A DNA stretch of 64,000 bases from a virus, in the IMG/VR virus record IMGVR_UViG_3300037520_001276, positions 20,397 to 84,396 of that record. The stretch is one strand, 5' to 3'. Made by a program: the position numbers and the translations under genes. Below, piece by piece: positions 7,984 to 61,178 of this stretch (position 1 is its first letter; each line of letters starts with the position of its first letter). The notes under the pieces are model-generated. The model ran no database searches. It was not told the origin of the DNA and saw nothing but the letters and a program-made list of their open reading frames with translations.

Positions 7984-8050
7984 ATTTTTTTATTGTAAAG
8001 ATAGTAAATTTATTATATTTATCAATAAGCGAAAATATTATTAAAAAAGT

Positions 8051-8081: not shown

Positions 8082-8087
8082 TACTGT

Positions 8088-8237
8088 TGATGTGGGTAAC
8101 ACTACTGAAAACAAGGATGTCAGTACTCCTAATTAACAATCTGACCGCTGAAAACTGGGTGAATCGGTTTGGGTTAATTACCTCAATTCTGGGAATGAAA
8201 TAATTTAAACCCCATCTTACAAAAGGTGGGGTTTGTT
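8088..8237 (+). ncRNA. Candidate structured ncRNA (about 150 nt)
   Basis: Relatively GC-richer intergenic unit between a promoter and a hairpin; several stems; only a 37-codon ORF with atypical codons. Confidence 0.5.
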
Positions 8238-31214: not shown

Positions 31215-33143
31215 TTATAAAACCGTAGGACATGTTGGTCCTGTTTTTTGTGCTAAAGTAGATCTTGTTATTATTGTTGAATCTATTCCTTGGCAATTTA
31301 ATGGTGTGATCGATATGTTTCTTACTTGTAAAGTTATTAACGAATTCGCCCTCAAAGTACATGAATTAGTACTGGCACATGTTTCATAAATATACTGACT
31401 AATAGTACCTCCAATCGTTGCAGTGTTATTAGTTATTAAACATGCTGAGTATGTGGTTTGGAATCCGCTAACAATAACTTGTCCTCCCGCACAATTATTG
31501 TTAATTGTTGTACTTGAAGTCGGTGTTGTTGAAGTTGGTAAGTTTAGGGTTGTACCTGTCGATCCTGTAACAACGATGGTGTTATTTATTATTGGTTGAT
31601 CAGTTGCGTTTGTTGTGCCTGTTGTTGAGATATCAAAAACTAAATCAAACTGTACGGTACTTGGTTGATTGAACGGTTGTGTTGGTGTTAAACTAATTGT
31701 AAATGTAGTATTTTTTGTAAGTGTTGCAAAACTAGCAGCTTGAGTAGTTGTGTTAGATAATGGTGATGGTTCAACAAAATTAACATTAATTAAATAATTT
31801 ACAAAGTTTTGTACAGGAACAATACTAAAAGTTTGATTACCTGAATTTTGTATTGGTGACGAGTCTTTAACATAAACAGTGTATGGTCCACCCGCTAAAT
31901 TTGTTAAAAAGTTATTTGATGTAAAATTAATATTATCTAAAGAATATGTGTATGGTGCAGTGCCTCCAATAACATTAACGGTCGCAGAACCATAACTTGT
32001 TGAACATGCCGGGTTTTGTGTTTGAACGCTAATTTGAAGTGGCGAAGTTGTACAAACACCTGTAGTTACATTAATGTTAGATATAAACGCACCTGGCGTT
32101 GTCCAAGTACCAACAGGTGGTGTGTTTGGGCTTTGTAGGTAAGGAACATTACTACTTGACCATCCACTTATTGTCCATCTCGTTGTTCCGCTATTATAAT
32201 ATATAGTTTGTGTGCCGGCAGTCCAAGATGGGTAATTATTTATTGTGTTACCGCTGTAGTATGTTGTTTGATTTAGCGTTGCAGGATGAATTAATCTTGT
32301 AAAACAAAGTGGTCCTCTATATATTTGCGGAGTAATTAGTATATTAATACCGCTATTACATATTAAACAAGAATTATATGGGCCAGCAGATTTAACGGCT
32401 ACTTGATTTATAAATGTTTGTCCGCTATTTAATTCTGATCCTAAACTTTTCCAACACCCCATTTGTGATGTTAGTTTATAAATTTTATTAAGGGTAAATA
32501 AAGATGGTTGACTTCTTAAATAATAAACCACTTCTCCGCATTGTGGTGTTGATGTAAACATTTCGATTGTACCTAACCAGTCATCTATTGTTCCGGAAGG
32601 ACAATCAGTATCATCGTTTAACCAATTTAATGTAGTTAAAGTAAGGAAAGACGCCAATTCCCATCTTTCAAGTGTTGGGTTCCAACCTAATACAAAATTT
32701 TCATCTCCTGATCCTATATCTGCCATCCAAGTAAAAAGGTTTCTACCGTATTGAGTTCCTGTTGGTGTAAGATTAAATGTCTGAGCTTGTAATGTTGATG
32801 GGTTAGTCCATGTCAATGTTAAACCGCAATCACAAACTGAAGAACATTTTTGAAACTTTTCTAAAAAAAATGATTCGTATCCAACGGTACAGGTTGTCGA
32901 TGCGCTAAAATCACCATAGTAATCGGTTACATTTACAGTATAGTCTCCCGGTATTAAATTTGTTATATATGTACCTTGAGCACCATTACTCCATGAAACC
33001 GTATATGGTGGTGTTCCTCCTGTGATTAGTACCGCCATATAACCGTTAGATGACGCTGGTGTTGACGCATTTATAGTGTCACAATCAATACCCAAAGGTA
33101 AAAGAGTTACGATATTACAACTATTTCCACTTAAATCTGCCAT
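31215..33143 (-). CDS. SprB-repeat-containing virion/fibre protein
   Basis: GGTPPYTVSWSNG...L.PG.YTV.VTD and GGTAPYTYSLD...GPYTVYVKDS repeats. Confidence 0.75.
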   Translation of the reverse strand: MADLSGNSCNIVTLLPLGIDCDTINASTPASSNGYMAVLITGGTPPYTVSWSNGAQGTYITNLIPGDYTVNVTDYYGDFSASTTCTVGYESFFLEKFQKCSSVCDCGLTLTWTNPSTLQAQTFNLTPTGTQYGRNLFTWMADIGSGDENFVLGWNPTLERWELASFLTLTTLNWLNDDTDCPSGTIDDWLGTIEMFTSTPQCGEVVYYLRSQPSLFTLNKIYKLTSQMGCWKSLGSELNSGQTFINQVAVKSAGPYNSCLICNSGINILITPQIYRGPLCFTRLIHPATLNQTTYYSGNTINNYPSWTAGTQTIYYNSGTTRWTISGWSSSNVPYLQSPNTPPVGTWTTPGAFISNINVTTGVCTTSPLQISVQTQNPACSTSYGSATVNVIGGTAPYTYSLDNINFTSNNFLTNLAGGPYTVYVKDSSPIQNSGNQTFSIVPVQNFVNYLINVNFVEPSPLSNTTTQAASFATLTKNTTFTISLTPTQPFNQPSTVQFDLVFDISTTGTTNATDQPIINNTIVVTGSTGTTLNLPTSTTPTSSTTINNNCAGGQVIVSGFQTTYSACLITNNTATIGGTISQYIYETCASTNSCTLRANSLITLQVRNISITPLNCQGIDSTIITRSTLAQKTGPTCPTVL

Positions 33144-33144
33144 A

Positions 33145-33303
33145 TTATCTTGGTGTGTAACCTGGTCTTATATAACCATCATAAAATTCAATAGTTTCAA
33201 TTTCATCTCTTCTATTGTAGTATGCTATTTTTTGTTTTGTAAGTGTACCGGCGGTTGGGTGATCTACGGTATATGTTTCTATTTGATAAGTTCCTAAGTC
33301 CAT
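33145..33303 (-). CDS. 52-aa protein after a fibre gene (possible fibre chaperone)
   Basis: MDLGTYQIETYTVDHPTAG...; fills the gap; not in the track. Confidence 0.65.
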   Translation of the reverse strand: MDLGTYQIETYTVDHPTAGTLTKQKIAYYNRRDEIETIEFYDGYIRPGYTPR

Positions 33304-33305
33304 AA

Positions 33306-34604
33306 TTAATATTCTAAATAAACGTTCATTTGTTGTCTAACACTTGTTGGGTTTGTTGCCCATGTTGGTGTTGTCCATCTTATTTCTATTTTATCTCCTT
33401 CTGTAACTGCTAAGGGTGATGATAATACATAACTTATATTTGCACTTGAAGAGTCGTAAGTATATGTTGTTGTTATCGTACTTTGTGTTGATTGTGTAAA
33501 ATTATTTATTGTAAACGTACTAGTTTCACTAGTACCTAAAGCACCACCAACTGTTTGACAAATACCTACTCTTACAATATTTCCTGTTTTAGGTACAATA
33601 ACTCTTCTTCCATCGGATCCCGAAATAGGTGCTGTAAGATTGATTGAGTTACCTATATAATATGTCTGTGTATCACCAGGATTTAATGAATCATGTCCAA
33701 AAAATAAAGCGATTAATTGTTTAGGGTTCACTGTTATTCCACTTACTGTTAAAGTATTAGCAGAAACAGTATTTGCAGTAATTGATTGTGATGATATAGT
33801 TCCGTTTGATGTTAAACCCGAAACGTCATCAAACAAAACTGAAATAGAACCTCCAGTACTATTTGTGTAGGTAAAGTTATTATTAGAATACGTTGCTCCT
33901 GTTATAAAAACATCAGTCGCACCTGTATAAAACCCAGTCACATTAAAAGTACCTCCTGTATTATTTGTAAAAGTTGCAGTACCATTACTATATGTTCCTC
34001 CTGTAAGTCTAACATCTGTTGCACCTGTTAAAAAACCAGTTACATTAAAAGTGCCTCCGCTATTATTTGTAAAAGTTGCAGTTCCTGTTGAAGAATTATA
34101 AGTCCCTCCAGTTACTCTAAGATCAGAGGCTAATATTGACAAACTTGAAGTTAAAGTTACCCCATCATTTCTACTTAATGAAAGATTATAGTTGGAATTG
34201 TTAAATGTCACTCCTGTTACAAATGTATCGGCAGATATTGAATTATTATTTATAGTTATTGTTGTTGCAGATATTCCTTGCGGGAATACTACCGGACTTA
34301 ACATGTTTATTGGTGAACATCCTGAAATACTACTAGTGTAAAGGGTCCCGTTTGACCCACACAAATCTATTGTTGTTGCACTAAATGTATTAGCCGAAAG
34401 TCCTCCGATGAAGTTTGTTTGTGAATTCACAGTTCCTCCTGTAAATGTACTTCCTGAAAATATAGAAGTTAGCTGTTGTAATTCAGCTTTATATGATGAT
34501 CCAGCAGCGTTCTGCGATGGATCACCAGTATACACAATATGAATAAGTGTTGTTGGTGTAATAGCTGATGATTGTGCTAATGTTTTTTCTGTTAATCTTG
34601 CCAT
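33306..34604 (-). CDS. Tail fibre-like protein with TGGTY..GTATFTNN.GGTFNVTGF repeats
   Basis: Three to four internal repeats of about 28 aa; N-terminus shared with 39844-41853. Confidence 0.75.
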   Translation of the reverse strand: MARLTEKTLAQSSAITPTTLIHIVYTGDPSQNAAGSSYKAELQQLTSIFSGSTFTGGTVNSQTNFIGGLSANTFSATTIDLCGSNGTLYTSSISGCSPINMLSPVVFPQGISATTITINNNSISADTFVTGVTFNNSNYNLSLSRNDGVTLTSSLSILASDLRVTGGTYNSSTGTATFTNNSGGTFNVTGFLTGATDVRLTGGTYSNGTATFTNNTGGTFNVTGFYTGATDVFITGATYSNNNFTYTNSTGGSISVLFDDVSGLTSNGTISSQSITANTVSANTLTVSGITVNPKQLIALFFGHDSLNPGDTQTYYIGNSINLTAPISGSDGRRVIVPKTGNIVRVGICQTVGGALGTSETSTFTINNFTQSTQSTITTTYTYDSSSANISYVLSSPLAVTEGDKIEIRWTTPTWATNPTSVRQQMNVYLEY

Positions 34605-34614
34605 TTTAATTTAT

Positions 34615-34899
34615 TTATTGAAATTGATATTCGTCTCCATCTTGAAATTCAAAATAATCTCCGTCTTCAAATTGTTTATACGATGCCGATGATGTTTCAC
34701 AATAAACACATCCCACATCATCAATAATTTTTATAACATAACTAGGGTATGTTTCATATACAGATGGTAATGTAAAACTATAAGGTGTTGTTGTTATTGT
34801 GTCATGATACACACAAGTACCAAAACATGTGTCACATATCCATATATTATATGGCGATGTTCCACTTGTAATTGAATTAATTGTTACTTGATATGACAT
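34615..34899 (-). CDS. Small Cys-containing fibre adaptor-like protein (paralogue 1)
   Basis: G..PY.I..CD...C...ID..GC.Y pattern shared with the 41875 and 42178 ORFs; TATTTAT at 34905-34911. Confidence 0.7.
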   Translation of the reverse strand: MSYQVTINSITSGTSPYNIWICDTCFGTCVYHDTITTTPYSFTLPSVYETYPSYVIKIIDDVGCVYCETSSASYKQFEDGDYFEFQDGDEYQFQ

Positions 34900-34913
34900 T
34901 ATCTATAAATATT

Positions 34914-36524
34914 CTACCCTCTACTTTTACAGTTTCCATTTAATGTACAAAACTCAGTTAACAAACCTAAAGTTCCTACTTTATATATTTTAGTGCCGTA
35001 TTGTACATAATCAATAGTAACCGGTCTTGTTAAATTAATATCTCTATATATGTAAACACCTGTCTGTAAAACAGTGTCCGCTGAAGACGTGTAGAATGTT
35101 ATTGCCGCCCCAAAATTTGTTAACTGACAAACAGGGCAAGATAATGAGTATTCTCCTTTAGCTTCCCAACTTTTATATGTGGTTCCTGTTATTACAGGTG
35201 TATTACATTCTAAACAACTATCATAAACTGTTTGGGCGGAAGAAGTAAATATATTAGAGTTTGTAACAATAAATCCGCTTGGTGGTATATATCCAATAAA
35301 GTTTCCAATGTACTCATAACAAATCCCAGAATTTGTTTTTATAATATCATTTACAACCACATTTGATGGTGGGTATGATGTTTGAACTATCATACTATTA
35401 TTAGTACAAGACGTAAACACAAATGAAGTCCCAATAGGATATGTCGGAGTAGGTGTTGGTGTTGGAGTAGGTGTTGGAGTAGGTGTTGGTGTTGGTGTAG
35501 GTGTTGGTAAATCACACTGTGAACAACCTGATATTAAAATTTCAATTATTTCTTTTACGGTCCTATTTGGTGACCCACTTACACTTCTTTCATAAGTAAC
35601 ACACTGTATTTGGTCTGAATTAAAATCACTTAATGTCACAACAAACGTTGTCCCTGTTTGTATTTGAGTTCCGCTGTATATCAAACTATTGGTCACATAA
35701 TAAATGTCAGATGTTTGGCAGTCAACAAGTTTTTTAACTGTTGGACACACAAAAAACCCTTGATCTACCACAAAAGTAACACTTTCACCTGTAATTGGTA
35801 TTACCGGTGTAGGAGTTGGTGTAGGGGTTGGTGTAGGTGTTGGTGTAGGTGTTGGTGTTACTTCCTCAAAACTAATACTAGCAGTAAATACATTACAAGG
35901 GTCGGGTGTAGGGGTTGGTGTAGGGGTTGGTGTTGGTGTAGGTGTAGGGGTTGGTGTTGGGGTCGGTGTGGGTATTTCACACTCCAATAAAACATCAAAA
36001 TCTAAAACCGAACACGGATCTGTTGGTGGTGGTGTTGGTGGTGGACAAACTCCGTTTGTTTGAATAGATGGTGCAAGATCAGGACAAAAACTTGTTGTTG
36101 GAAAAGACCCATAAAATAAACAAGTTCCACCAAGAGACGTACTTAAACACCATTTAGTATTGTCAAAATATAAAAAACCAGGGTCAGTTCCTCCTGTAAA
36201 ATATAAATAACCATTATAAGAACCATCAAGACTATATGTTCCTGTTATACCTGAATAGGTATCTCCAAGTAGTTCTAAACAAATAATATCATCACAACAA
36301 GACTCACAAGAAGGGTGAGTACACCCTGAAACAACAGTTGCGGTACCAACTAATGATGTAGTGATTACTGGTGTAATACCACTAGATACCGTATAGCACC
36401 CATCAACAATAACGGTATCTCCTGTTATGTTAAATACAGTACCAATGGCTGTTAAACCACCCCAACTTGTTGCACTATATGATATTTGATTGTAACAACA
36501 ACTACTTAATATTATGTCCGTCAT
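34914..36524 (-). CDS. Cys-rich virion protein with three mucin-like (Pro-Thr)n tracts
   Basis: PT tracts at about 35443-35508, 35805-35859 and 35899-35973; TATTTAT at 36544-36550. Confidence 0.8.
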   Translation of the reverse strand: MTDIILSSCCYNQISYSATSWGGLTAIGTVFNITGDTVIVDGCYTVSSGITPVITTSLVGTATVVSGCTHPSCESCCDDIICLELLGDTYSGITGTYSLDGSYNGYLYFTGGTDPGFLYFDNTKWCLSTSLGGTCLFYGSFPTTSFCPDLAPSIQTNGVCPPPTPPPTDPCSVLDFDVLLECEIPTPTPTPTPTPTPTPTPTPTPTPDPCNVFTASISFEEVTPTPTPTPTPTPTPTPTPVIPITGESVTFVVDQGFFVCPTVKKLVDCQTSDIYYVTNSLIYSGTQIQTGTTFVVTLSDFNSDQIQCVTYERSVSGSPNRTVKEIIEILISGCSQCDLPTPTPTPTPTPTPTPTPTPTPTYPIGTSFVFTSCTNNSMIVQTSYPPSNVVVNDIIKTNSGICYEYIGNFIGYIPPSGFIVTNSNIFTSSAQTVYDSCLECNTPVITGTTYKSWEAKGEYSLSCPVCQLTNFGAAITFYTSSADTVLQTGVYIYRDINLTRPVTIDYVQYGTKIYKVGTLGLLTEFCTLNGNCKSRG

Positions 36525-36541
36525 TTAATTAATTGGTTTTT

Positions 36542-37738
36542 TTATAAATATACATCTTTACGATTTATCCAATTATTATTTGTATCATAAACCCAATAAA
36601 CCCACCTATATGGGTTTGAAGTTGATTTGAAACTTACATTTAATTTTTCTTGGTTGTGGTTTAAATCTACCCTATATATTAAATCTCCATTTATATCTTC
36701 AAAACCGATGTAAATAAATTTAAAATCTTTTGCTTTTGGTATGTTTAATTCAAATTCATAAGTTTGTTCCTCAATTAAAAACCATTCGGAATAATCATTG
36801 ATTGGTGGGTTAATTCCTTTTAAAGTTTTGGGGTGTAGTTTTCTATTTTTAAAATTTATTCCGGCATAATCCTCATATTGTTTATGGGTTCTAACGTTAC
36901 CTAAACCATATTCTTCTAAATCTATATTATTATCTTCTTCCTGTAACATGTGTCTTAATCTTTTTTTTGACTCATCATCCATTTCCCACCATTGTTTTTC
37001 AACGACACCTTTTGTTTTATTTTCTTGATTAAAATCTGTCCAATGTTTTGTTCTACCTTCTCTTGTGTATTCATGCCATACAACAGTTTTATGTGGATGA
37101 TATAAATCATAACCTAAAGTATATGACCTTATTGATAAGCTAATCTCATCCCCTGCAAAGTATATATTTGGGTCGTATTTGTACTCTTCACAATGTTTTC
37201 CTATTGTAAAAAAGAAATGACCACTAACAAATCTTGCAGGTATTGGTTTATCTAAAGTTTCCCAATTTTGTATTGCATGGGGTCTAAACATTATGGTACC
37301 ACCTTCTGTGAAGTTTGTTGCAACCATTTTATACGGTTCAACATTTAATAATTGGTTATCGTTTGGTCTATACATACCAGCATATGATGTAATTATCGGT
37401 TTTTCTGAATCGACCATATTCATCATATTAATTAATTCTTCGTCCCAATTTTCAATAAACCTGTGATGCGAATCTAATTGAAGTGTGTATTCTTCTCCTC
37501 TCCAAAGTTTTTGTATTTCAGAACGTGCCCAACAAAGTCCTTTACTTTCCGACCAATGATATTCTAAAACTCTAAACCTATTATCAAATGTAAATTCCTC
37601 TAATGATTCTGTTTCGTCACGTTGCCAACATATACCAAAAGTTAAATTTTCAGGATGTTTTGCCTTAGTTATACAATCTCTGATAGTCGGTAAAAGTTCG
37701 GGATCCCTATATGACGCGATTTGAACAAATATTTTCAT
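36542..37738 (-). CDS. GT60-family polypeptide GlcNAc-transferase (Skp1-Hyp GlcNAc-T / trypanosome mucin OGNT-like)
   Basis: IFVQIASYRDPEL, GLCWARS, YTLQLDSHHRF..WD, YDP.IYF.GDEI and V.WH.Y motifs. Confidence 0.85.
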   Translation of the reverse strand: MKIFVQIASYRDPELLPTIRDCITKAKHPENLTFGICWQRDETESLEEFTFDNRFRVLEYHWSESKGLCWARSEIQKLWRGEEYTLQLDSHHRFIENWDEELINMMNMVDSEKPIITSYAGMYRPNDNQLLNVEPYKMVATNFTEGGTIMFRPHAIQNWETLDKPIPARFVSGHFFFTIGKHCEEYKYDPNIYFAGDEISLSIRSYTLGYDLYHPHKTVVWHEYTREGRTKHWTDFNQENKTKGVVEKQWWEMDDESKKRLRHMLQEEDNNIDLEEYGLGNVRTHKQYEDYAGINFKNRKLHPKTLKGINPPINDYSEWFLIEEQTYEFELNIPKAKDFKFIYIGFEDINGDLIYRVDLNHNQEKLNVSFKSTSNPYRWVYWVYDTNNNWINRKDVYL

Positions 37739-37759
37739 AAATAAAAGTTATGAAAATAT
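37729..37759 (-). promoter_or_regulatory. 12-bp inverted repeat covering the GT60 start codon
   Basis: atattttcataa (37729-37740) / ttatgaaaatat (37748-37759), 7-nt loop. Confidence 0.5.
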
Positions 37760-37774
37760 AAAAATAAATGAATA

Positions 37775-38023
37775 TTATTGTTTGTTATTTGATCTTATTT
37801 CGGTACTTCTAATACCATTTTTAAAAACGACATAGTTTATTTCATCTAAAGTGTATTCAAAATCAAATTTCAATTCTTCTATTTTAGTGTAACATTCTTC
37901 AATAGTGTTTCCGTCAAAAACGTAGTTTCTTGTTAAAGTAATATCTGAAGTTTCAAATAAACTTAAAATTTCTATATCATTATATATTAATCTCCAAATC
38001 ATATTTAATAAGTAATTGTCCAA
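37775..38023 (-). CDS. Small hypothetical protein
   Basis: 82-aa ORF, true start possibly MIWRL. Confidence 0.65.
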   Translation of the reverse strand: MDNYLLNMIWRLIYNDIEILSLFETSDITLTRNYVFDGNTIEECYTKIEELKFDFEYTLDEINYVVFKNGIRSTEIRSNNKQ

Positions 38024-39840
38024 TTTTGAGGTGATCCTGTTAAAAACGCAACCGCGGCTAAACCATCAAACCCACCACTAGAATTGTCAGGGTTGGCGTT
38101 AGATCCACCAATATTTAAATCTATACTATCCCAACCTGTTAAGTTATATGTTGCATTACCACTAAAATCAACAAGAATTTGATTAACCTCAGATGCCGTC
38201 ATTCCGTTATTTTGTAACCTTATTCTTGAGTTTGTTGAAAATGTTGATCCTGATAATGGTTTAAAATCAACATAGTTAAGACCATTACCGTACAATGTTA
38301 ATGCGGAATCGTTTTCTGAGACACCACCGTTATTAAAAGTATTTATTGTAACCGGAAATAAAACATCGGTTAATCCTGTATTACTAAAAATTTGTATCGA
38401 TCCTGATAAACCAGAAAGTGGTGTCAAGTCATGAGTACCTGTAAGATTACAATTATACGCTAAATAATATGAAAACGTGTTTGCGGAAGATGATGGTCCG
38501 TGTAATATTTGATTTAAATTTGTATTGTTATTACATGCAAAAGACCCACCTAATCCTGTTATTTTTGATAAATCAAGGGTACCTGTTAGATTACAGTTGT
38601 CAACTAAAAATTGATTTGTAACACTTGCAACATTTTGATTATAGGTACATGCACTACTAAAAGTTATACCTGTTAAATTTGGGTTTAAGGATATATCAAA
38701 TCTACCACCTAATCTACCTGTAAATCCACTTAAATTTAAATTACCTGTTAAATCACACTCACTTAAAAGTATTGATCTGAAATTTTTTGTTGTTGAAGTA
38801 AAAAATACGGATGTTAATCCTGTGTTGAATCTTAAATCAATTTCACCAACACTAGAAGAACCACCAAAGTTTGGAAAAATTGATAAATCTAAGGTACCTT
38901 GTAAGTTGCAACCCGCAAAGTCAAAATTTGTAATTCCGTTTGATATACAAGAATTTGTAGGGCTTGAAAATATTGCGGCTTGTGTTGGTAAAGTAATACC
39001 GGTCAAATTTGGATTGGTTCTAAAACTAATATTAACAGGAAACCCTGACAACATGGATAAATTTAAATTTCCTGTTATATTATTATTTTGACCAAATAAT
39101 TGTGGTGATCCGACGGAAGCCACTCTAGCACCAACATTAGGAAACGTAACTCCAGTTAAAAAAAAGTTACTAGATATATCAAAACTATAGGTTGTGACAT
39201 TCATTCTATTATTCATACAAGAAAAATCTAAATCACCTATTAATCTATTATTACTAAAATCAATATTTCTTGGAGATCCTGCAATATAGAGACTTGGTAA
39301 AGTTATAGATGATAATGATAGGTTATCTAATACGTCAATATCTCTCACTCTATTAAACATTGAAATATCTAAATCTTTTAATCCTGTTGATTGTAACCCA
39401 TACGAAACCGACAAATTATACAAAGAATTTGTTATTCCCTTCCAATTTTGTGGGTTTGTCACCCCTGTTAAACTATTTGTTCCAACAATACTGAATTGGG
39501 CCTCAATTTTATTCCATTTTGAAAAATCAAGATTTCCAATTAAACCTGGACCTGCCTGTATGCTTGTTCGACCTATTTCTCCTGTGTTGAAAGTTTTTAT
39601 TTGGGCTATTTTTTCTCCTGCAGTTAATCCTGTAATAATGTAGGGTCTTGTTGTTCCTGTACCACCGGCACTTCTAGTGACTCCACTGTACGATGTAGGA
39701 TACCCACTAATACCAACTAACGCCCTCTTTATTGTCCCATCATCGGCAAAATAATGAGTAAAATTAAATGTTGTGCCGGTAAACCTTATATTAAATATAT
39801 CCTGAGATTTGTTTGTAGAAAAAAATGCTGCTCCTTTCAT
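38005..39840 (-). CDS. LRR/beta-solenoid repeat protein, putative receptor-binding subunit
   Basis: Repeats of CNLTG.LDLS...G......N.NLT.I.FP. Confidence 0.75.
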   Translation of the reverse strand: MKGAAFFSTNKSQDIFNIRFTGTTFNFTHYFADDGTIKRALVGISGYPTSYSGVTRSAGGTGTTRPYIITGLTAGEKIAQIKTFNTGEIGRTSIQAGPGLIGNLDFSKWNKIEAQFSIVGTNSLTGVTNPQNWKGITNSLYNLSVSYGLQSTGLKDLDISMFNRVRDIDVLDNLSLSSITLPSLYIAGSPRNIDFSNNRLIGDLDFSCMNNRMNVTTYSFDISSNFFLTGVTFPNVGARVASVGSPQLFGQNNNITGNLNLSMLSGFPVNISFRTNPNLTGITLPTQAAIFSSPTNSCISNGITNFDFAGCNLQGTLDLSIFPNFGGSSSVGEIDLRFNTGLTSVFFTSTTKNFRSILLSECDLTGNLNLSGFTGRLGGRFDISLNPNLTGITFSSACTYNQNVASVTNQFLVDNCNLTGTLDLSKITGLGGSFACNNNTNLNQILHGPSSSANTFSYYLAYNCNLTGTHDLTPLSGLSGSIQIFSNTGLTDVLFPVTINTFNNGGVSENDSALTLYGNGLNYVDFKPLSGSTFSTNSRIRLQNNGMTASEVNQILVDFSGNATYNLTGWDSIDLNIGGSNANPDNSSGGFDGLAAVAFLTGSPQNWTITY

Positions 39841-39843
39841 TTT

Positions 39844-41853
39844 TTAATTATAATCATTACCTACCGTCCAATAAAGAATATTACCATCATATACACATGA
39901 TAATATATCAACAGCGTTAGGATTACTGGTTAAATAAATCAATCCTCCTCCTCCACTTGATACTTTGTGTCTTCCTGAACCTGAAGTTCCGTTTATTGTT
40001 CCTAACGTGATGGTCCTACTACCAACACTATCTTGAGTTAAAATAATTGTAGCATACTCACCATTTCTTATATTAGATACATTAAGTGTTGTTGTTGTTG
40101 CAGTTAAAGTTGCGGTATAATTGTTACTAACGCCAGAAACGTCCCAATTAATAGTAGATGCGGTTCCAGGATTAAAAAATGGTGGTACAGGTAAGTTTAA
40201 ATATGTTGTTGCTGATATTGTTGTTGCCGTAAAATTACCATAAACAGTAACACCTGAATTGGCAGCAAATAGTAAATTTGATCTGTTCGTTGAACTTAAC
40301 CCATTTCCTATTATAAACGCCCCTTGTGTGGTGTCTCCGGTTGAATTCCATTGTCCTATCGCCATTTGGTAATCACCTCTTGAGTATGTACCTAACCCTT
40401 CTGCGTGTGAATAGTTACCAAATGCCGTTGTTCCACTTCCTTCTGCATGTGAACCTGTTCCTGAAGCGGTAGTATTTCTTCCTTCAGCATGAGAATTAGC
40501 ACCAGACGCAAGTGTAATATGTCCTTCTGAATGTGCATATGATGTTGTTGCTGATGTTTGAAACCCTTCGGCGTGTGAACCCGTTCCTGACGCCCTAGTA
40601 CCACTACCTTCTGAATGTGCGTATGATGTTGTTGCTGATGTTTGAAACCCTTCACTATGAGAACCGACTCCTGATGCTCTTGTAGTAACCCCTTCAGAGT
40701 GAGATGCGATTCCTGTTGCCGTAGTTCCACTACCCTCAGCATGTGATGCGATACTAAGTGTGAAAGTGTTACTACCTTCTGCATGTGACGCAATACCATT
40801 TGCTATTGTATATTCTCCCTCGGCATGTGCGTGTGTGTTTGAGGCCGTAGTCTCATAACCCTCAGCGTGTGACGCTTGTCCTGATGATAATGTTCGTATA
40901 CCTTCTGAATGAGCATATAATGTTGTTGCCGATGTTTGAAACCCTTCGGCGTGTGTATAACTATTTTGTGTAAATGTAAGATTACCCTCTGCGTGTGACC
41001 AATTGCCGGAAGCAATTGTTTGACTACCCTCTGCGTGTGAACCAGAACCTGATGCTGTTGTTTGGGTCCCTTCCGCATGTGAACCACCACCACTTGCAGT
41101 TGTTGTATCACCTTCAGCATGTGATGCAGCACCTGACGCAAGTGTTAATTGTCCCTCAGAATGAGCATAAGTTGTTGTTGCTGATGTTTGGAATCCTTCA
41201 GTATGTGAAGCACCTCCTGACGCCAACGTACTTTCTCCTTCCGCATGTGAACCATAACCTGATGCGAGTGTAAGTTGTCCTTCTGCGTGTGAATAATCTG
41301 TAGTTGCGGATGTTTGAAAACCAAAAGAAATAGATGATTGATCCGAAACTGTAGAACCGGTTGATCTTATTGAGTCATATATTGTTATTGGTGAACATCC
41401 GTGAATATTCGTGACATATAAATCAACTATACAATTTCCTGATCCTCCCGTGAATGTTGTTCCTGAAGCGGTAATTCCTGTAACTTGGAATGTGTTATTT
41501 TGATTATTTGTAAAAGTTAAAGTATCTATTAAAAACGTCCCTCCTGTTACAAAAGTGTCTCCTGTAATTTGTACACCATTAACAAATAAAGTACTAGCAG
41601 ATATTGTATTCGCAGTTAAACCATTTGTGAAGTTAGTTGCCCCACTTACAGTACCCCCACTTAATGGTAAGTAGTCACCTGAAACCGATCCTCCACTAAA
41701 AATACTAGAAAGTTGTTGTAATTCGGCCTTATAAGACGATCCCGCAATATTTTGTGACGGATCACCTGTATAAACAATATGTATGAGTGTCGTCGGCGTT
41801 ATTGCCGATGATTGTGCTAATGTTCTGTCAGTTAATAATTGATATGTTGGCAT
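39844..41853 (-). CDS. Fibre protein with YadA-head-like 14-aa SHAEG repeats
   Basis: About 21 SHAEG/AHSEG units, then FIIGNG..S.NRSN and a C-terminal TQDSVGSRTI...VDILS domain; TATTTAT at 41864-41870. Confidence 0.85.
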   Translation of the reverse strand: MPTYQLLTDRTLAQSSAITPTTLIHIVYTGDPSQNIAGSSYKAELQQLSSIFSGGSVSGDYLPLSGGTVSGATNFTNGLTANTISASTLFVNGVQITGDTFVTGGTFLIDTLTFTNNQNNTFQVTGITASGTTFTGGSGNCIVDLYVTNIHGCSPITIYDSIRSTGSTVSDQSSISFGFQTSATTDYSHAEGQLTLASGYGSHAEGESTLASGGASHTEGFQTSATTTYAHSEGQLTLASGAASHAEGDTTTASGGGSHAEGTQTTASGSGSHAEGSQTIASGNWSHAEGNLTFTQNSYTHAEGFQTSATTLYAHSEGIRTLSSGQASHAEGYETTASNTHAHAEGEYTIANGIASHAEGSNTFTLSIASHAEGSGTTATGIASHSEGVTTRASGVGSHSEGFQTSATTSYAHSEGSGTRASGTGSHAEGFQTSATTSYAHSEGHITLASGANSHAEGRNTTASGTGSHAEGSGTTAFGNYSHAEGLGTYSRGDYQMAIGQWNSTGDTTQGAFIIGNGLSSTNRSNLLFAANSGVTVYGNFTATTISATTYLNLPVPPFFNPGTASTINWDVSGVSNNYTATLTATTTTLNVSNIRNGEYATIILTQDSVGSRTITLGTINGTSGSGRHKVSSGGGGLIYLTSNPNAVDILSCVYDGNILYWTVGNDYN
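40390..41300. repeat. Degenerate coding repeat with a 42-nt period (SHAEG array)
   Basis: Recurring ccttc.gc.tgtga units. Confidence 0.8.
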
Positions 41854-41874
41854 ACTTTATTTTATAAATATTGA

Positions 41875-42162
41875 TTATTGAAAATAATATCCGACACCAT
41901 CCATGAAATCAAAATATATTTCGTCTTGGAATGCTTTTTGACCAACACAATTAAGTATTGTTGAGTAAATACATCCGTTTGTATCGACTATTCTTAAATA
42001 AAGAAAATTTTCATTTGGAAAATAATTTTCCGTATTTATTTCGACTGTTGCCGGTATATATGTTAATCCCGATATATAAAAACACCCTGTATTTGTTGGG
42101 TCACATAAAAATATATCATATGGTTCAAGACCTCCAGTGTCTCCTGTAATTTGTACTAACAT
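41875..42162 (-). CDS. Small fibre adaptor-like protein (paralogue 2)
   Basis: GLEPYDIFLCD....C...VDTNGCIY...FQD.IYFDFMDG; TATTTAT at 42167-42173. Confidence 0.7.
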   Translation of the reverse strand: MLVQITGDTGGLEPYDIFLCDPTNTGCFYISGLTYIPATVEINTENYFPNENFLYLRIVDTNGCIYSTILNCVGQKAFQDEIYFDFMDGVGYYFQ

Positions 42163-42177
42163 ACATATAAATAGTTT

Positions 42178-42465
42178 CTATTCAAAAACCAAAAAGTCTC
42201 CCCCTTCGGTTGTCATCATATCACCTAATTCGGTTAGGATTATGAATGTTTCTAAATCACAAGATATTATCTGAAAATAAATACAACCCGTACTATCAAC
42301 AGATTTTATCATTAAAGTAGTTGCCGTCTGTAATAATGTTGGTAATATATAGATACCCGGTGTTGTCCCTAATAAAGAACAATTATTACCATATTGGTCA
42401 CAAGCATAGAAACTAATCGGTGCGGTACCACCTGAAACACCTGTTATGTCTATTGAATAAGCCAT
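42178..42465 (-). CDS. Small fibre adaptor-like protein (paralogue 3)
   Basis: GTAPISFYACD....C...VDSTGCIY...ILTELGDMMTTEGGDFLVFE. Confidence 0.7.
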   Translation of the reverse strand: MAYSIDITGVSGGTAPISFYACDQYGNNCSLLGTTPGIYILPTLLQTATTLMIKSVDSTGCIYFQIISCDLETFIILTELGDMMTTEGGDFLVFE

Positions 42466-45400
42466 TATACCGGTCCTCCGTCATATATATCCCAACTTTT
42501 AGTTGTTGTTAAATAGTTTCTTGCAGCAGTTGCCGTTGCCCCACTATATTTTGAATTTCCAAATTCTGCGACAACTCCATTTTGTAAAGACGCACCATAT
42601 GATGACCAACCTATTAGTAAATCATTATAACTATCCGTGGTAAATGCGACTACCGTAGGGCTACCATCATTATCTTTTAGGAATTCCGATAACCCCGGAA
42701 AACTAGTAATATCAGTAACATCCCAACTTCCTATGTTATTAACTTCAGTTGCTCCACTAAAGGCGTTATAAAATAATTTTAAAGAAGTTCTACCATTTAG
42801 ATTTGGTGTGTCGATAACATTATCAAATTTTAAATTATAACAACCTCTAAATTCATCGTTAGGTCTTGGTCGGTATCCACCCCACTCGTCGATTGATATA
42901 AATTTCAATCTGTCTGAACCTCTATCATATGGAGAAGTTCCTGGGTATCCGACTTGAAATTCCCAACTAGGTATTAATCCATTATCCGGAAAAATACTAA
43001 TTTGATAAATTCCTGGTGTAGGGTAGGTATGAAGACTGCTGGTTCCCACTAAAGGACTTGTAGTACCATCCCCCCAATGAATACTTCCGTTAGAGAAAGA
43101 CTGCCCAGGTGATGAAAAAGGTAATCTTATAACGTATGGTCCCGATGATGTAATCATTTGGTCTCCAGTTATAGGGTCAATATATGAACCATAAACAATT
43201 CTAGTATCTACAGTAAATCTAAATGCAGGTATCGGTGTTGGAGTCGGTGTTGGAGTCGGTGTTGGAGTTGGTGTTGGTGTTGGAGTCGGAGCAACCGGAT
43301 AAGTGTATATAAATGTATTTGAGTAATCACTTACACCAGCACCGTTACATGTTTGTTTTATTCTAAAATAAACAGTACTTGTTGTTGCTGTTGTTGCTGT
43401 TGTTGGTATTGTTCTATACAAAGAACAAGCACCGGTATTTGAGTTCCATGTTGCCCCACTATTTGTTGAGTACTCAACTGTTGTTGCTAGACAAGGTCCG
43501 CAAGGTAAGTTAAAATAAATACCAAATAATCCTGTCGTATTTATTGGACCTGCACTTGATATTGTTGGTGTACAACATACTACGGTTGGTGTTGACGCTG
43601 TTGATGCACTACCAGTACAAGTGGCGTCGTAATCTATTTGTAATTCTAATTTGTATTCAGAATTACCAATTGGGTCAATGTCTCCCGAACAATTAGACTC
43701 TATGTGTATTGTATTGTTTAACTCATCAATTGTGAAATCACCAACACCATTAATATTTGATAGTAGAAATTCAACGGTACTTAACCATAAACTATCTGAA
43801 GGGATGTCGTCAATATCGGTTATGTTGGCAAATGTTTGCGTATATGCACTACCATTTATAGTGATAGAACAAGTTAAATCGGCATTTAAAATAGTACAAC
43901 CAGTATAACCTGATGTTGCATCCATAAAACCTTCAAAAAACATTTCAGATATTCCTCTTTTTGCACCAACGGTCGTTGTAAATTCATTTTCACATAAATT
44001 ATATGTTTGATATGCTGATATTAAATTACCAATACAAGTAATATTAAAATAATTGGTTTCAGAACACCCATCAATATCGGTAACTGTTAAACTATAAGTT
44101 CCTGCGGTTAATCCCGCAACTGAAGACCCCACAGAACCATTAGACCAAAGGTAAGTAAATGGTGGCGTACCTCCATATATTGAAGTGGATGCGGAACCAA
44201 GAGTTGTTCCAACACAGTTTGTATAATTAATTGCAAAACTAACAGTAGGTGTTGTTGTTATTGAAAAATTTTGACTGACGGTACATCCTTGGTTATCGAC
44301 AACACTTATTGTATAATTCCCTGGTACTAAGCTTGTAAAAGTTTCTGCACTTGATGTTGTGTTTGGTATTACACTATCGTTTATTAATGGTGTATCAATA
44401 TTTTCTAAAACATAGGTTATTGATCCTGTGTATCCTGTACCAACAATTACTTCTACCGAACCGTTTGGTTGTCCACAAGTAGATCCTGTTGTTGTTGCCG
44501 AAACTGTAAATTTTTGTTGTGAATTAATTGTTGCTGTTGTTGTATAAGCACAAGCAGCTCCTGAACCAGATATTAATAAATCATATGTCGCATTACTTAA
44601 ACCTGTTTGTGTAAAACTTTGGTTTGTTCCAAAGTAACTATAAACGGTCCCTCCTGTTTGTGCACTTAAAACATATAGATAATTTTGACTGCCTGTTCCT
44701 AATATTGAAACACTTATTTCTCCGTTATTTTGACTACAAACGGAATTTGTCACATTTAAACTATTTAATGAAAAACCATTTTGCGTGTTTAAAGATCCCG
44801 GTATAGTTAATACACAAAAATTAGCATCTCTAACTAAAATATTATAAATTCCAGCACCTAAATTACTTACAGTAAATGTATTTGATAGTGTATACCCAAC
44901 CTGACCTGTGTTTGCCGAATAAAAATATGGTGATGTTCCTCCTGATATCGTATAGGTTAAACTACCATCAGTCGCAAAACAACTAGGACTAATACTAGTT
45001 AAACCAACAAACCCTAAAGGTTCTGCAATACCTATTGTTTCTTCAACTGTTGTTGAGCAACCTAAACTATCCGTAACCGTACAACTATAAGTCCCTTGAG
45101 TTAGTCCTGTTACGAGTTGTGTTGTTTCTCCATTATCCCATAAATAAGTGAATGGCCCAACACCCGTAAGTCCGGTTACTGCAAGTTTTCCTGTGTTTAT
45201 AACACATGTTGATGCGTTAACTTTCCAAAGTCCAAAATTAACACCAGTAGAATCATAAATTAAAGAGTTTGGTGTATTTGCACTTACCGCACCAAAATCA
45301 AAAATGGTTGAGTAGTATGTACCAGCACTTAAATTAGTAAAGGTGTATGGTAATGTTAATGTTTCTATAACTTGGAAAATAGATCCGTCTTTATATAATA

Positions 45401-45926
45401 TAATATCATAAGGACTATTAATAGATGTTGCACTAACCGTTAGAGATCCGTTTGGTAATCCGCATGTTGTGGTGTCGACATCTGTTATAACTGAAGTAAA
45501 ACATTCAGAAACATATATGTTTATGTATTGCTCATTGTTTTGTAATCCTTGATTATCATTTATTCTAAAGACGTATGTTCCAGCACTAAGTCCTGTGTAT
45601 GTAAATGGTCCGTTACTCGTTTGTAATGGTAAAGTACCTGGAATTATATTATCTATAGTATACGGTAAAACACCACCAAAACCAGTGATTATTGTTGACC
45701 CCGATGTTGAATCACAAACTCCGGTTACAGTAAAAGTAGTACTTAAAATACCTGTATTACAATTTTGTGTACAAGTTATTCCTGTTGCAACGTAAACCCC
45801 ACTTGCACTTCCTGAAAAAGCACCGTCAATACAAATACTTTCACCTAAAGAAATACCCGATTGTAGATTACCACAACAATCAACATAACTGTAAATACCA
45901 TTGGTTAAACCTGAAACACATGCCAT
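42465..45926 (-). CDS. Large mosaic virion protein: SprB repeats, (PT)n tract, PKD-like and BspA/DUF285-like C-terminus
   Basis: About seven SprB-type repeats (GGTPPFTYLWSNG..GLTAGTYSLTVTD..GC); PT tract at 43233-43290; IHWGDGT..HTYPTPGIY; NIGSWDV..YNDLLIGW..WDIYDGG. Confidence 0.8.
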   Translation of the reverse strand: MACVSGLTNGIYSYVDCCGNLQSGISLGESICIDGAFSGSASGVYVATGITCTQNCNTGILSTTFTVTGVCDSTSGSTIITGFGGVLPYTIDNIIPGTLPLQTSNGPFTYTGLSAGTYVFRINDNQGLQNNEQYINIYVSECFTSVITDVDTTTCGLPNGSLTVSATSINSPYDIILYKDGSIFQVIETLTLPYTFTNLSAGTYYSTIFDFGAVSANTPNSLIYDSTGVNFGLWKVNASTCVINTGKLAVTGLTGVGPFTYLWDNGETTQLVTGLTQGTYSCTVTDSLGCSTTVEETIGIAEPLGFVGLTSISPSCFATDGSLTYTISGGTSPYFYSANTGQVGYTLSNTFTVSNLGAGIYNILVRDANFCVLTIPGSLNTQNGFSLNSLNVTNSVCSQNNGEISVSILGTGSQNYLYVLSAQTGGTVYSYFGTNQSFTQTGLSNATYDLLISGSGAACAYTTTATINSQQKFTVSATTTGSTCGQPNGSVEVIVGTGYTGSITYVLENIDTPLINDSVIPNTTSSAETFTSLVPGNYTISVVDNQGCTVSQNFSITTTPTVSFAINYTNCVGTTLGSASTSIYGGTPPFTYLWSNGSVGSSVAGLTAGTYSLTVTDIDGCSETNYFNITCIGNLISAYQTYNLCENEFTTTVGAKRGISEMFFEGFMDATSGYTGCTILNADLTCSITINGSAYTQTFANITDIDDIPSDSLWLSTVEFLLSNINGVGDFTIDELNNTIHIESNCSGDIDPIGNSEYKLELQIDYDATCTGSASTASTPTVVCCTPTISSAGPINTTGLFGIYFNLPCGPCLATTVEYSTNSGATWNSNTGACSLYRTIPTTATTATTSTVYFRIKQTCNGAGVSDYSNTFIYTYPVAPTPTPTPTPTPTPTPTPTPIPAFRFTVDTRIVYGSYIDPITGDQMITSSGPYVIRLPFSSPGQSFSNGSIHWGDGTTSPLVGTSSLHTYPTPGIYQISIFPDNGLIPSWEFQVGYPGTSPYDRGSDRLKFISIDEWGGYRPRPNDEFRGCYNLKFDNVIDTPNLNGRTSLKLFYNAFSGATEVNNIGSWDVTDITSFPGLSEFLKDNDGSPTVVAFTTDSYNDLLIGWSSYGASLQNGVVAEFGNSKYSGATATAARNYLTTTKSWDIYDGGPV

Positions 45927-58819: not shown

Positions 58820-60661
58820 CTATGAAAAGTCTACAGACTTTAGATTTTTAACTCTAACTTTAATATCCTTGTTATCGTACCTTATTTGATATATTTGATC
58901 TGGTTCGGCAAATACGGTATCATCGATTAAACGAATTTGTCTTGTTTCGGGGTCAATATATCTTTGTGATGTTTGAGATGAGGAATATTGTCCTCCAACT
59001 TTATTAAATACATTAATTTCTGTTAAAGATATTACACCTGCAGTGTTTTGTACTAACCTTCTAACATCAGAAACGTTAACATTTTGACCAAGTTCTCTGT
59101 TTTTTGGGTTCATATAATTTGAAATCTGATCAATAATCTCAGTTATAACTTGTCCTTGATTCTGTGTTGATTCTAAAACGACAAAAAGTTCTAACTCTAA
59201 ATCAATAACTTTAGCTATATCAATTGCAATGTAATCATTTATCATTCTATACTTTGATAGGTATGTCGCTAAATTACTTTTTAAGTAATTTGACACCACT
59301 TGTGTTAATTTACCAGTATCATCATAAGATAAAATTTGAACATTAATTTTATTATTCTTTTCAGTTATTGAAACTTTTGCTGGAGCACCAAATTTACTAG
59401 GCATTGTATCAATTAATGACTTATAATCATTAATTGTTACCGCTCTTTTTTGTGCAGAAAAGTTAAAAGAAACCATGTTTCTAACTTCTTCTGTTGATGG
59501 TGGATTTGCTCCCCCAATTGCTGCCGTTACATTGTTACAACCCAAAGATTGTTGAACATTTCTATTTATTGAGTCTGATGGTCCGGTGACCGCAAAATCA
59601 ACAGTACCAACTTGATTAATAACTCCAACACCTACATTTGTAGCCAAACCACCACCAACCCTATATTGGATAAATAATGTTGTATTTGGTCTAACAGTTA
59701 AACCTAAACCAATGTTATTTTGGTATTTGTTAATATCTAAAGGTATTCCTGTATTTGTAAAACTTTTTAATTGTTCATTTGGTGTTGTTGTTCCTCCTCC
59801 AAATTGTAGTTTCATAAAACCTTCGGGAGTATATTCAGACATAAATCTTTGTTCTGTTTTAATATATTTACCAACCTTAATACCACTACTATCTATTGGT
59901 TTTGTGGGATCTTCAACAAATATTGTATCTTCGGCCAAAGCGTCAACTTCATACCATTTATTATTTGTTGCATTTAAAAAATCTTGGAATGTTGGCGTAC
60001 CTGGATATGATGTTCCGTCTTTTTGAATAACACCTGTAACACCTAAAACATTTCTTTCAGGTAAAAATAAATTAAAAAATGGAACCGCATCTACCGGATT
60101 TATAACTTTTTTAAATACTTTAGTAAACCCATTTACAACCACCTCTCTTTTTGTGATAATGTAATTCACTACTTTATTATTAGCATCAAATGTTGGTATC
60201 TTAGTTCTATTAATAAACCCTTCTTGATTATACTGTGTTGAAAAGTCTATGTCATATATTGTTTCAAAAGAAGTACCTCCTCCATTAAATTGTGAACCCG
60301 CCCTTAAAATTCCCAAATATCTAAAGTCTTCAGAGTCTCCAAGTGGTGGTACCGTTATTGATATATCAACAATAGCAACTGATGGTCTATATCCGGGTAT
60401 TTTTAAACCATATGTTCTTGCAATATTATAAATTGAGGATCTTTGTTGTGCGTATTGTAAAACCGTTTCTTGAATACTTCTATCAATATGAAAATGTAAA
60501 TTGTCAGCAACTGCAGCGTTCAAATCCATTAAAACAGAATATACTGAAGCATCATTAAAGTTTTGTATTAGTTCTGGGTAATACTGTTTTGTGTAGTTAA
60601 TTAAATCCTGCCTTAACCCTTCAAAATCTCTTTCAGTATAATTTATTTTATTATTTGCCAT
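58820..60661 (-). CDS. Baseplate wedge protein (T4 gp6 / baseplate J-like)
   Basis: YTERDFEGLRQDLI...NDAS...L.F.ID...E...A..YG.K; YRVGGG..TN; QKRAVT..DY. Confidence 0.88.
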   Translation of the reverse strand: MANNKINYTERDFEGLRQDLINYTKQYYPELIQNFNDASVYSVLMDLNAAVADNLHFHIDRSIQETVLQYAQQRSSIYNIARTYGLKIPGYRPSVAIVDISITVPPLGDSEDFRYLGILRAGSQFNGGGTSFETIYDIDFSTQYNQEGFINRTKIPTFDANNKVVNYIITKREVVVNGFTKVFKKVINPVDAVPFFNLFLPERNVLGVTGVIQKDGTSYPGTPTFQDFLNATNNKWYEVDALAEDTIFVEDPTKPIDSSGIKVGKYIKTEQRFMSEYTPEGFMKLQFGGGTTTPNEQLKSFTNTGIPLDINKYQNNIGLGLTVRPNTTLFIQYRVGGGLATNVGVGVINQVGTVDFAVTGPSDSINRNVQQSLGCNNVTAAIGGANPPSTEEVRNMVSFNFSAQKRAVTINDYKSLIDTMPSKFGAPAKVSITEKNNKINVQILSYDDTGKLTQVVSNYLKSNLATYLSKYRMINDYIAIDIAKVIDLELELFVVLESTQNQGQVITEIIDQISNYMNPKNRELGQNVNVSDVRRLVQNTAGVISLTEINVFNKVGGQYSSSQTSQRYIDPETRQIRLIDDTVFAEPDQIYQIRYDNKDIKVRVKNLKSVDFS

Positions 60662-60662
60662 T

Positions 60663-61127
60663 TTAGATATTTATTATAATAAATTCTCTACTACCAAATG
60701 CCTTTGCTTCGTCTGTGTAGTCAATTTTTAGTTTAGCGGTGTATTCACCAGTATTTTGGCCAGGTATTTTAAAAACGCTAGCCTGACCCAATAATTCGTA
60801 ATTTAAATCACCAGGGGCTTCGTCACTTTCTAAAAAAGGCTCAACAGAAATATTATTAATAGTTAAGTTTGGTATGTACTTTGCAACCTGTTCTTCAATG
60901 TCAGTCCTAATACTATCAAATGTTTCTCCGTCTAAAGGTTCAAATATAAATTCATATATTCTTGTTCCAAAATCAGGTAAATAATATCTAGTTCCCTTCC
61001 TTGTTAAAATTAAATGTAATAAATTACTTCTTATTTCTTCTGAAGTCTCTTCAGATAAAGACAAATAAAAACCTTTATCGCTTTGTCTAAAAGGAAAATT
61101 TATTCCATATGTTGTTCCATCTGCCAT
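60663..61127 (-). CDS. gp25/GPW-like baseplate wedge (sheath initiator)
   Basis: GINFPF...IRSNLLHLILTRKGTRYYLPDFGT.I...IFEP; TATTTAT at 61133-61139. Confidence 0.9.
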   Translation of the reverse strand: MADGTTYGINFPFRQSDKGFYLSLSEETSEEIRSNLLHLILTRKGTRYYLPDFGTRIYEFIFEPLDGETFDSIRTDIEEQVAKYIPNLTINNISVEPFLESDEAPGDLNYELLGQASVFKIPGQNTGEYTAKLKIDYTDEAKAFGSREFIIINI

Positions 61128-61178
61128 ATAAAATAAATATAGTATTAATAAATTTCTGTTAAATAATAAATCTTTAAT

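Follow-up and report, generated by a model that had tools for sequence, protein, structure and literature searches.

What is an enzyme of the mucin-glycosylation type doing among the fibre genes of a phage? The question is raised by a 64,000-nucleotide stretch of viral DNA (hereafter the window; positions 20,397 to 84,396 of IMG/VR record IMGVR_UViG_3300037520_001276), in which a gene for a glycosyltransferase of family GT60 (36542-37738, minus strand; coordinates are those of the window unless a contig is named) lies directly upstream of a gene for a protein whose modules are joined by alternating proline-threonine repeats, here called (Pro-Thr)n or PT tracts. An initial annotation, made from the letters of the window, proposed that the phage uses this enzyme to build glycosylated, mucin-like linkers on its own appendages. 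The comparisons reported here support that proposal as far as sequence can carry it. The enzyme is an intact member of its family, its linkage to PT-tract genes recurs in many other viruses, and we judge with moderate confidence that the phage glycosylates its own PT linkers, probably through an N-acetylhexosamine (HexNAc) attached to the oxygen of Thr.

As described in excerpts of two reviews (PMC8724618, PMC9472816), GT60 enzymes are polypeptide alpha-N-acetylglucosamine (GlcNAc) transferases by which mucin-type O-glycans are initiated in protists, and TcOGNT1 makes GlcNAc-alpha-O-Thr on the Thr/Pro-rich mucins of Trypanosoma cruzi. The activities that the initial annotation had cited for the family, which were transfer to Skp1 hydroxyproline in Dictyostelium and to Thr in trypanosome mucins, agree with these excerpts. 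The excerpt of PMC8724618 also describes GT60 enzymes as being without the lectin domain of GT27 enzymes. Our literature searches found no report that links a phage GT60 enzyme to PT tracts; in one preprint, GT60 appears simply as an entry in a list of auxiliary genes of viruses.

The window encodes an intact GT60 enzyme

A profile search confirmed that the motif first recognised from the letters of the window belongs to a genuine family member. The 398-residue product of 36542-37738 matched PF11397, 'Glycosyltransferase (GlcNAc)', with E 5.8e-69 and 233.6 bits (cut-off, 21), covering profile positions 2-44 and 94-351 of 352, and it matched phrog_24687 ('glycosyltransferase') over its full length with E 2.4e-103. 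When 22 GT60 sequences that are 42-84% identical to the window enzyme were aligned, 74 columns were invariant, and these include D12, D89-S90-H91-H92 and W221-H222-E223-Y224-T225-R226, each found in 22 of 22. We take D89-S90-H91 to be the metal-binding D-x-H/D-x-D catalytic motif of GT-A type enzymes. The catalytic domain occupies approximately residues 1-297. Beyond it the protein has a C-terminal extension of about 100 residues that is also conserved, and the last 101 residues have no match to a Pfam family. No Pfam match to a ricin-like lectin domain, which is the hallmark of GT27, was found in the enzyme.

The Pfam match starts at residue 2, which suggests that the protein has neither a signal peptide nor a membrane anchor, and it is therefore predicted to be soluble and to act in the bacterial cytoplasm. 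Sequence and profile searches for relatives of solved structure returned none that is relevant. Among 40 open reading frames of the window scanned with Pfam, no other glycosyltransferase was found. The enzymes do not themselves carry the repeat: a PT tract was present in none of 240 retrieved GT60 proteins.

The Pro-Thr tracts of the window lie near the GT60 gene

Using a search for (PT)4 or longer in any open reading frame of at least 80 residues, we found four tracts in the entire window, all of them less than 6 kb from the GT60 gene and three of them in the next gene. That gene (34914-36524, minus strand) starts 17 bp downstream of the GT60 stop codon and encodes the candidate acceptor, a Cys-rich protein of 536 residues built like beads on a string, in which four modules are joined by PT tracts at residues 185-207 (35904-35972), 223-240 (35805-35858) and 340-361 (35442-35507). 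The three tracts of this protein had been noticed in the initial annotation. Neither the protein nor its modules matched a family in Pfam, PHROG or NCBIfam, and its nearest clusters in the ESM Atlas are viral orphans. A match to internalin K (E 3e-4) spans a PT tract only and was rejected.

The fourth tract lies in a fibre-like protein of 1153 residues (42465-45926, minus strand), where residues 880-898 (43233-43289, minus strand) join the body of the protein to a C-terminal domain of 255 residues. This protein had been labelled SprB/DUF285. Its tract and its SprB repeats (PF13573, E 2.4e-9) were recovered; DUF285 was not found, and the C-terminal 255 residues gave only a weak PKD match (E 0.007).

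The initial annotation had further held that the PT codons are synonymously scrambled, so that the repeat would be maintained at the level of the protein. The codons of the tracts do vary: every one of the four Pro codons is in use, as are three or four of those for Thr. Tandem Repeats Finder, however, detected higher-order units of 12 to 30 nt in the tracts (84-97% match), which indicates some recent duplication at the DNA level and leaves the description only partly right. Relatives provide better evidence for upkeep of the repeat as protein. A search with the 536-residue protein from which the PT tracts had been masked retrieved 32 distinct homologues; all 32 have at least one PT tract, 26 have at least three, and their tracts, 8-26 residues long, draw on all four codons of Pro and of Thr.

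GT60 and PT-protein genes stay together in many relatives

A scan of viral contigs yielded 67 loci with a GT60 gene whose product is 41-84% identical to the window enzyme. GT60 is followed directly by the PT protein, as in the window, at 13 of these loci, and at 25 more a single uncharacterised gene of about 270 residues stands between the two, which gives 38/67 with this order. Another 10 loci have other PT-tract proteins within the flank examined, and the remaining 19 have no PT tract there. Several of these 19 are short or cut; at others GT60 is the first gene of a glycan cluster. Such GT60-headed clusters occur in many relatives and contain GT2, GT11, GT6, GT17, GT34 and GT4 genes, Glf (UDP-galactopyranose mutase, UDP being uridine diphosphate) and methyltransferases. 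A UDP-galactopyranose mutase gene adjoins GT60 in a phage contig (L019:11994-13100) and in a contig labelled as a giant virus (L067:3783-4898).

The intervening gene of about 270 residues, conserved where it occurs (for example L003:11194-11988), is not present in the window and had no Pfam, PHROG or NCBIfam match. It directly follows GT60 in contigs L019, L025, L046, L053 and L055, among others. Its ESM Atlas features lean to glycosyltransferase-like clusters, a model-based hint that we treat as a lead only.

When the PT protein served as query, four further contigs were found. Two of them (L075, L078) encode a PT protein that is 61% identical, preceded by a GT60 enzyme that is just 42% identical and still a clear PF11397 member. 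In the other two (L076, L077), a GT29-like gene on the other strand occupies the GT60 slot (PF00777, E 2e-22 and 2e-18). These exchanges suggest that some glycosyltransferase is kept beside the PT protein while the gene itself changes. The GT29 sialyltransferase-family gene is short, encoding about 205 residues (L076:5336-5953 and L077:5332-5943, both minus strand), and sits exactly where relatives have GT60; no GT29 gene was found in near-complete relatives. One related 31-kb fragment (G011), whose baseplate protein is 66% identical, lacks both GT60 and a (PT)5 tract. It holds a homologue of one module of the PT protein, with irregular P/T/S linkers, and is too fragmentary to carry weight on either side of the question.

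Whole records show how tightly the two features can be confined. In a 292-kb record that is 99% complete (G025), GT60 occupies 62750-63943 and all (PT)5 matches fall at 60835-61358 or 64205-64287; its four PT tracts are all less than 2 kb from GT60. Every (PT)5 match in G023 and G024 (about 75% complete) lies within 8 kb of GT60, and G026 has no (PT)5 match, with shorter tracts next to GT60.

Viruses selected for PT tracts are enriched in GT60

We also examined the association in reverse, starting from the tract. A scan of the viral collection with a (PT)8 DNA pattern gave at least 126 stretches, and the 80 listed ones were considered. Three of these were second stretches on a contig already represented and were removed, so that 77 loci remained, 70 of which were scored by family search. 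Listed matches to a made-up 14-letter word served as a random control (80 chosen, 78 scored). As a second control we used a Thr-free Pro-rich repeat, (P-E/K)8, for which 50 of 80 listed loci were taken, with giant-virus-named and last entries left out, and 42 were scored. PF11397 was present in 12 of 70 (PT)8 records, in none of 78 random records (Fisher p 7e-5) and in 1 of 42 (P-E/K)8 records (p 0.03), where the gene is sited 228 kb from the tract. The amount of sequence was alike in the (PT)8 and random samples (3.20 Mb, median 33 kb, and 3.10 Mb, median 31 kb).

Only 2 of the 12 positives belong to the phage group of the window, and the GT60 enzymes of the other 10 are 25-43% identical to the window enzyme. 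The tract lies less than 10 kb from GT60 in 7 of the 11 positives in which the repeat truly reads as PT. A PT protein directly follows GT60 in two of them (G050, G091), and one small gene intervenes in a third (G073). Co-occurrence, which the initial annotation had named as a check among related phages, was far above controls in related and unrelated viruses. In a quick maximum-likelihood tree of 66 GT60 sequences, the window enzyme falls in a clade of 28, all with a PT tract within 2.5 kb (SH-aLRT, the Shimodaira-Hasegawa-like approximate likelihood ratio test, 96), and the presence of a tract within that distance changes at least six times across well-supported branches of the tree. At loci of bacterial and archaeal GT60 relatives, a (PT)4 or longer tract occurred in the flanks examined of 11/79, a count without a control sample.

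Evidence that weighs against glycosylation of the tracts by GT60

Several observations weigh against the reading that the GT60 enzyme glycosylates the PT tracts. The samples of the reverse comparison were the first records listed and not random draws, and kinship among records was only partly controlled. One positive (G041) has a tract that reads (GV)n on the other strand, and its removal leaves 11/70 (p 2e-4); at the locus taken from that record (L408, G041:19000-33000), a protein with long (Gly-Val)n tracts is encoded at approximately 7800-8100 beside a divergent PF11397 gene, and PT occurs only on the non-coding strand. GT60 is absent from 58 of 70 (PT)8 records and present in just 2 of 13 that are at least 90% complete. 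In the direction from enzyme to tract, the flank is free of PT tracts at 19 of the 67 GT60 loci, and L076 and L077 retain PT tracts with no PF11397 match in their 30-kb fragments (10% complete). Distances can be large in records of the cluster type: the tracts of G001 lie at 39-50 kb and 108 kb and its GT60 at 181 kb, and the complete record G002 has its tract at 78 kb and GT60 at 31 kb, which gives tract-GT60 distances of 47-140 kb overall.

These counts would fit a GT60 enzyme that modifies other proteins of the phage or host. PT tracts would then be plain flexible linkers that happen to be frequent in fibre modules, which are variable and tend to collect accessory genes. Gene exchange is especially common in such modules, as illustrated by L076, where the GT29-like gene and a GIY-YIG/NUMOD homing-endonuclease gene (L076:12310-13047, just after the fibre module) share one region. 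Nonetheless, unless GT60 has some connection with the tract as such, it is difficult to account for the difference between 12/70 and the two controls, 0/78 and 1/42, and direct adjacency recurs with GT60 enzymes of 25-43% identity on different phage backbones. We therefore consider this explanation unlikely.

A further point against a specific role of GT60 is the parallel enrichment of GT2 genes among (PT)8 records (13/50 against 3/50, p 0.012); on the same 50 and 50 records, GT60 was found in 10 and 0 (p 0.001). This suggests that PT tracts may go with virus-encoded glycosyltransferases generally, GT60 being the strongest case, and part of the signal may reflect phages that are rich in glycan genes. 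Other enzymes, whether GT2-type enzymes of the phage or enzymes of the host, might then glycosylate the tracts, with a minor or redundant role for GT60. GT2 genes lie within 1.5 kb of a tract in two records (G074, G048), and near-complete relatives of the window's phage carry 3-5 of them. In this phage group, however, the GT2 genes are tens of kb from the fibre module while GT60 adjoins the tracts, and the scanned open reading frames of the window include no second glycosyltransferase, so that we assign this alternative a very low probability. The general O-glycosylation of Bacteroidota hosts is periplasmic and acts on a D-(S/T)-x motif; pure PT tracts lack this motif, and we set this candidate aside.

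Cultured phages raise the possibility of a different kind of acceptor. A tblastn search of 50,697 cultured-phage records found a GT60 homologue in just 4. The sole (PT)5 tract of XacN1 forms the C-terminal end of a 3313-residue protein 9 kb from GT60, and Stenotrophomonas phage RAS14 has (PT)4-5 tracts in WAX21591.1, 40 kb from its GT60 homologue (WAX21637.1). Less favourable to a role on the tracts, the only (PT)5 tract of Xoo-sp13 lies 136 kb from GT60, and in both XacN1 and Xoo-sp13 the gene adjoins a carbamoyltransferase gene near the replication genes for DNA polymerase and RNase H. That position would fit an enzyme whose target is not a protein but, for example, modified DNA of the phage, a glycan on the host surface or a lipid-linked sugar, and whose place in the fibre module is incidental; the multi-glycosyltransferase clusters headed by GT60 in many relatives could equally build a polysaccharide. 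A non-protein target leaves the association with PT tracts unexplained, however, and GT60 occurs fused to P4H-type (prolyl 4-hydroxylase-type), O-FucT and GT90 domains, partners that indicate modification of proteins. In the excerpts of PMC8724618 and PMC9472816, all characterised GT60 enzymes have polypeptide acceptors. We regard a non-protein target as decidedly unlikely.

Threonine is the favoured acceptor residue

The Dictyostelium precedent allows another chemistry, in which hydroxylation of Pro residues in the tract would precede the addition of GlcNAc, as is the case for Skp1. This is the route taken by Gnt1, another member of the family (excerpt of PMC8724618), and among 120 listed longer bacterial homologues at least 9 fuse GT60 to a PF13640 domain (P4H-type 2-oxoglutarate-Fe(II) oxygenase). 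A partner hydroxylase of the Skp1-type pathway was sought and rejected for this phage group: PF13640 was absent from all five records searched (this one and four relatives, two of which are 99% and 100% complete), and control genomes matched. The Thr-free (P-E/K)8 repeat, moreover, showed almost no association with GT60 (1/42). These two results suggest that Thr is favoured as acceptor in this phage, with hydroxyproline being possible elsewhere in the GT60 family; for the tracts described here, a hydroxyproline acceptor seems highly improbable. Other fusions among the listed longer homologues involve HtrL-type, O-FucT, GT90 and radical-SAM domains. In a separate observation, proteins P0196-P0199 and P0203, of about 805 residues, combine a radical-SAM/SPASM-type region with a GT60 domain that is about 50% identical to the window enzyme.

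The glycan may exceed one sugar, given the 3-5 GT2-type genes of near-complete relatives and the gene of about 270 residues that follows GT60 in many of them; a single HexNAc and a short chain on the tracts are both possible. In one record (G027:C1:1049-2387), GT2 matches contain two and three in-frame TAG stops, which may reflect stop-codon recoding or a broken gene.

The GT60 gene lies among fibre-like genes of a large phage

The source record, from an uncultured phage, is 84 kb long with a CheckV completeness of 29%, and the window is AT-rich (about 30% G+C) with nearly all of its genes on the minus strand; from 29003 to 61127 every gene is on that strand. This co-directional run of structural genes is headed by baseplate wedge genes at 58820-61127 (minus strand; gp6-like, phrog_219, E 1.8e-21, and gp25-like, phrog_261, E 1.8e-18, with a weak Baseplate_J match). 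Genes for RuvC-like, primase, exonuclease and SbcCD proteins, identified by PHROG matches, come after the fibre region, and together with the wedge genes they indicate a large myovirus-type phage. Searches for near-identical DNA among cultured phages found none.

Between 29003 and 58747 lies a series of large repeat-rich proteins, two of which have SprB repeats and one YadA-head-like repeats. The latter is a fibre-like protein of 669 residues (39844-41853, minus strand; PF05658, E 2.2e-5; phrog_25468, E 3e-63) with many 'SHAEG' repeats and no PT tract. A second fibre-like protein of 432 residues (33306-34604, minus strand) shares with it an N-terminal attachment module (69% identity over 87 residues), as would be expected for alternative fibres that dock at one baseplate site. 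With these two proteins flanking the GT60 gene and the wedge genes heading the run, the placement of GT60 inside a fibre module, as initially annotated, is a reasonable reading.

Three paralogous proteins of about 95 residues are encoded at 34615-34899, 41875-42162 and 42178-42465 (all minus strand), and in each case the gene lies immediately behind one for a large fibre-like protein. Fifteen columns, three of them Cys, are invariant among the paralogues, which have an acidic-aromatic tail at their ends; a role as chaperones of the fibres or as small subunits of the tip is conceivable. A scan of 33000-38400 for promoters and terminators gave counts near the shuffled expectation and was uninformative, as the sigma-70 consensus may not fit the host.

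Discussion

The reading that we favour can be set out as a sequence of steps. The GT60 polypeptide glycosyltransferase would be made in soluble form in the host cytoplasm together with the late fibre genes, and would draw on a UDP-sugar of the host, most likely UDP-GlcNAc. It would then place O-linked sugars on Thr residues in the (Pro-Thr)n tracts by which modules are connected in fibre-like proteins of the phage itself. The main target would be the 536-residue protein encoded next to it, with the 1153-residue SprB-repeat protein probably a second one. Glycosylation would precede assembly of these proteins into the particle, where we infer that the linkers would be located. The outcome would be stiff, extended and protease-resistant mucin-like linkers, which may also shield the appendages.

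The proposed system resembles the protist GT60 enzymes (TcOGNT1 and TcOGNT2 of T. cruzi and the Golgi enzyme of Dictyostelium) in its Pfam and CAZy family, its Thr/Pro-rich candidate acceptor and its want of a ricin-like lectin domain. It differs from them in being phage-encoded and soluble, with no membrane anchor and a predicted site in the bacterial cytoplasm instead of the Golgi, in its extra conserved C-terminal domain of about 100 residues, and in that structural proteins of the virus itself are the candidate acceptors. The gene for UDP-galactopyranose mutase that accompanies GT60 in some relatives echoes the mucin glycans of T. cruzi, which bear galactofuranose (Galf) according to the excerpt of PMC9472816. 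These glycans combine Galf with GlcNAc. Gnt1, the Skp1 hydroxyproline GlcNAc-transferase of Dictyostelium and Toxoplasma, is of the same family and is likewise soluble and cytoplasmic. It needs a prolyl hydroxylase, however, and modifies a single hydroxyproline on Skp1, whereas no P4H-type gene was found in the phage group and the candidate acceptor is a long repeat.

More distant systems offer parallels at the level of the acceptor. Metazoan GT27 polypeptide GalNAc-transferases (GalNAc, N-acetylgalactosamine) are related GT-A enzymes with a D-x-H motif. They carry out classical mucin-type initiation and densely glycosylate Ser/Thr/Pro-rich tandem repeats, and the phage candidate acceptor is similarly repetitive. 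The Cellulomonas fimi cellulases CenA and Cex have O-glycosylated (PT)n linkers between modules, which are thereby protected from proteases; these enzymes are secreted and are mannosylated by membrane enzymes of their host. The placement of (PT)n linkers between modules is thus alike, but the cellulases are not viral and involve no GT60. GT27 differs in CAZy family and in sugar, and its members are Golgi membrane proteins with a C-terminal ricin-like lectin domain (excerpt of PMC8724618).

Among phages, mycobacteriophages have virion proteins that are decorated by phage-encoded glycosyltransferases (excerpt of PMC12582341, which cites a study by Freeman and colleagues in Cell Host Microbe, 2023). 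As in those phages, the glycosyltransferase gene of the window lies inside a run of structural genes, here for baseplate and fibre proteins. The enzymes of that study reportedly belong to other glycosyltransferase families and, in phages of Actinobacteria, modify capsid and tail-tube subunits at their C-terminal tails. The system proposed here would instead involve an AT-rich jumbo myovirus in which a GT60 enzyme acts on PT linkers internal to fibre-like proteins.

To our knowledge, there are very few systems in which a phage is known to glycosylate its particles with enzymes of its own. If the favoured reading is true, an initiation enzyme of the eukaryotic mucin type coats the linkers of host-recognition appendages in abundant environmental phages, where it would affect the stiffness, reach, protease resistance and antigenicity of fibres. 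Annotators could then predict glycosylated linkers from sequence, and glyco-engineers would gain a soluble enzyme of the bacterial cytoplasm that may decorate simple (PT)n tags. The phage enzymes would also bear on the origin of mucin-type O-glycosylation. A broader proposal, which we offer tentatively and consider rather doubtful, is that GT60-initiated mucin-type O-glycosylation of PT tracts is ancient and common in viruses and bacteria. Several tailed-phage lineages, giant-virus contigs and many bacteria would pair a GT60 enzyme with surface or appendage proteins that bear PT tracts, and these cytoplasmic systems would share ancestry with the protist and animal pathway, which would then not be a eukaryotic invention. 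Were this the case, a glycosylated linker could be recognised in a genome by a (PT)n tract next to a GT60 gene.

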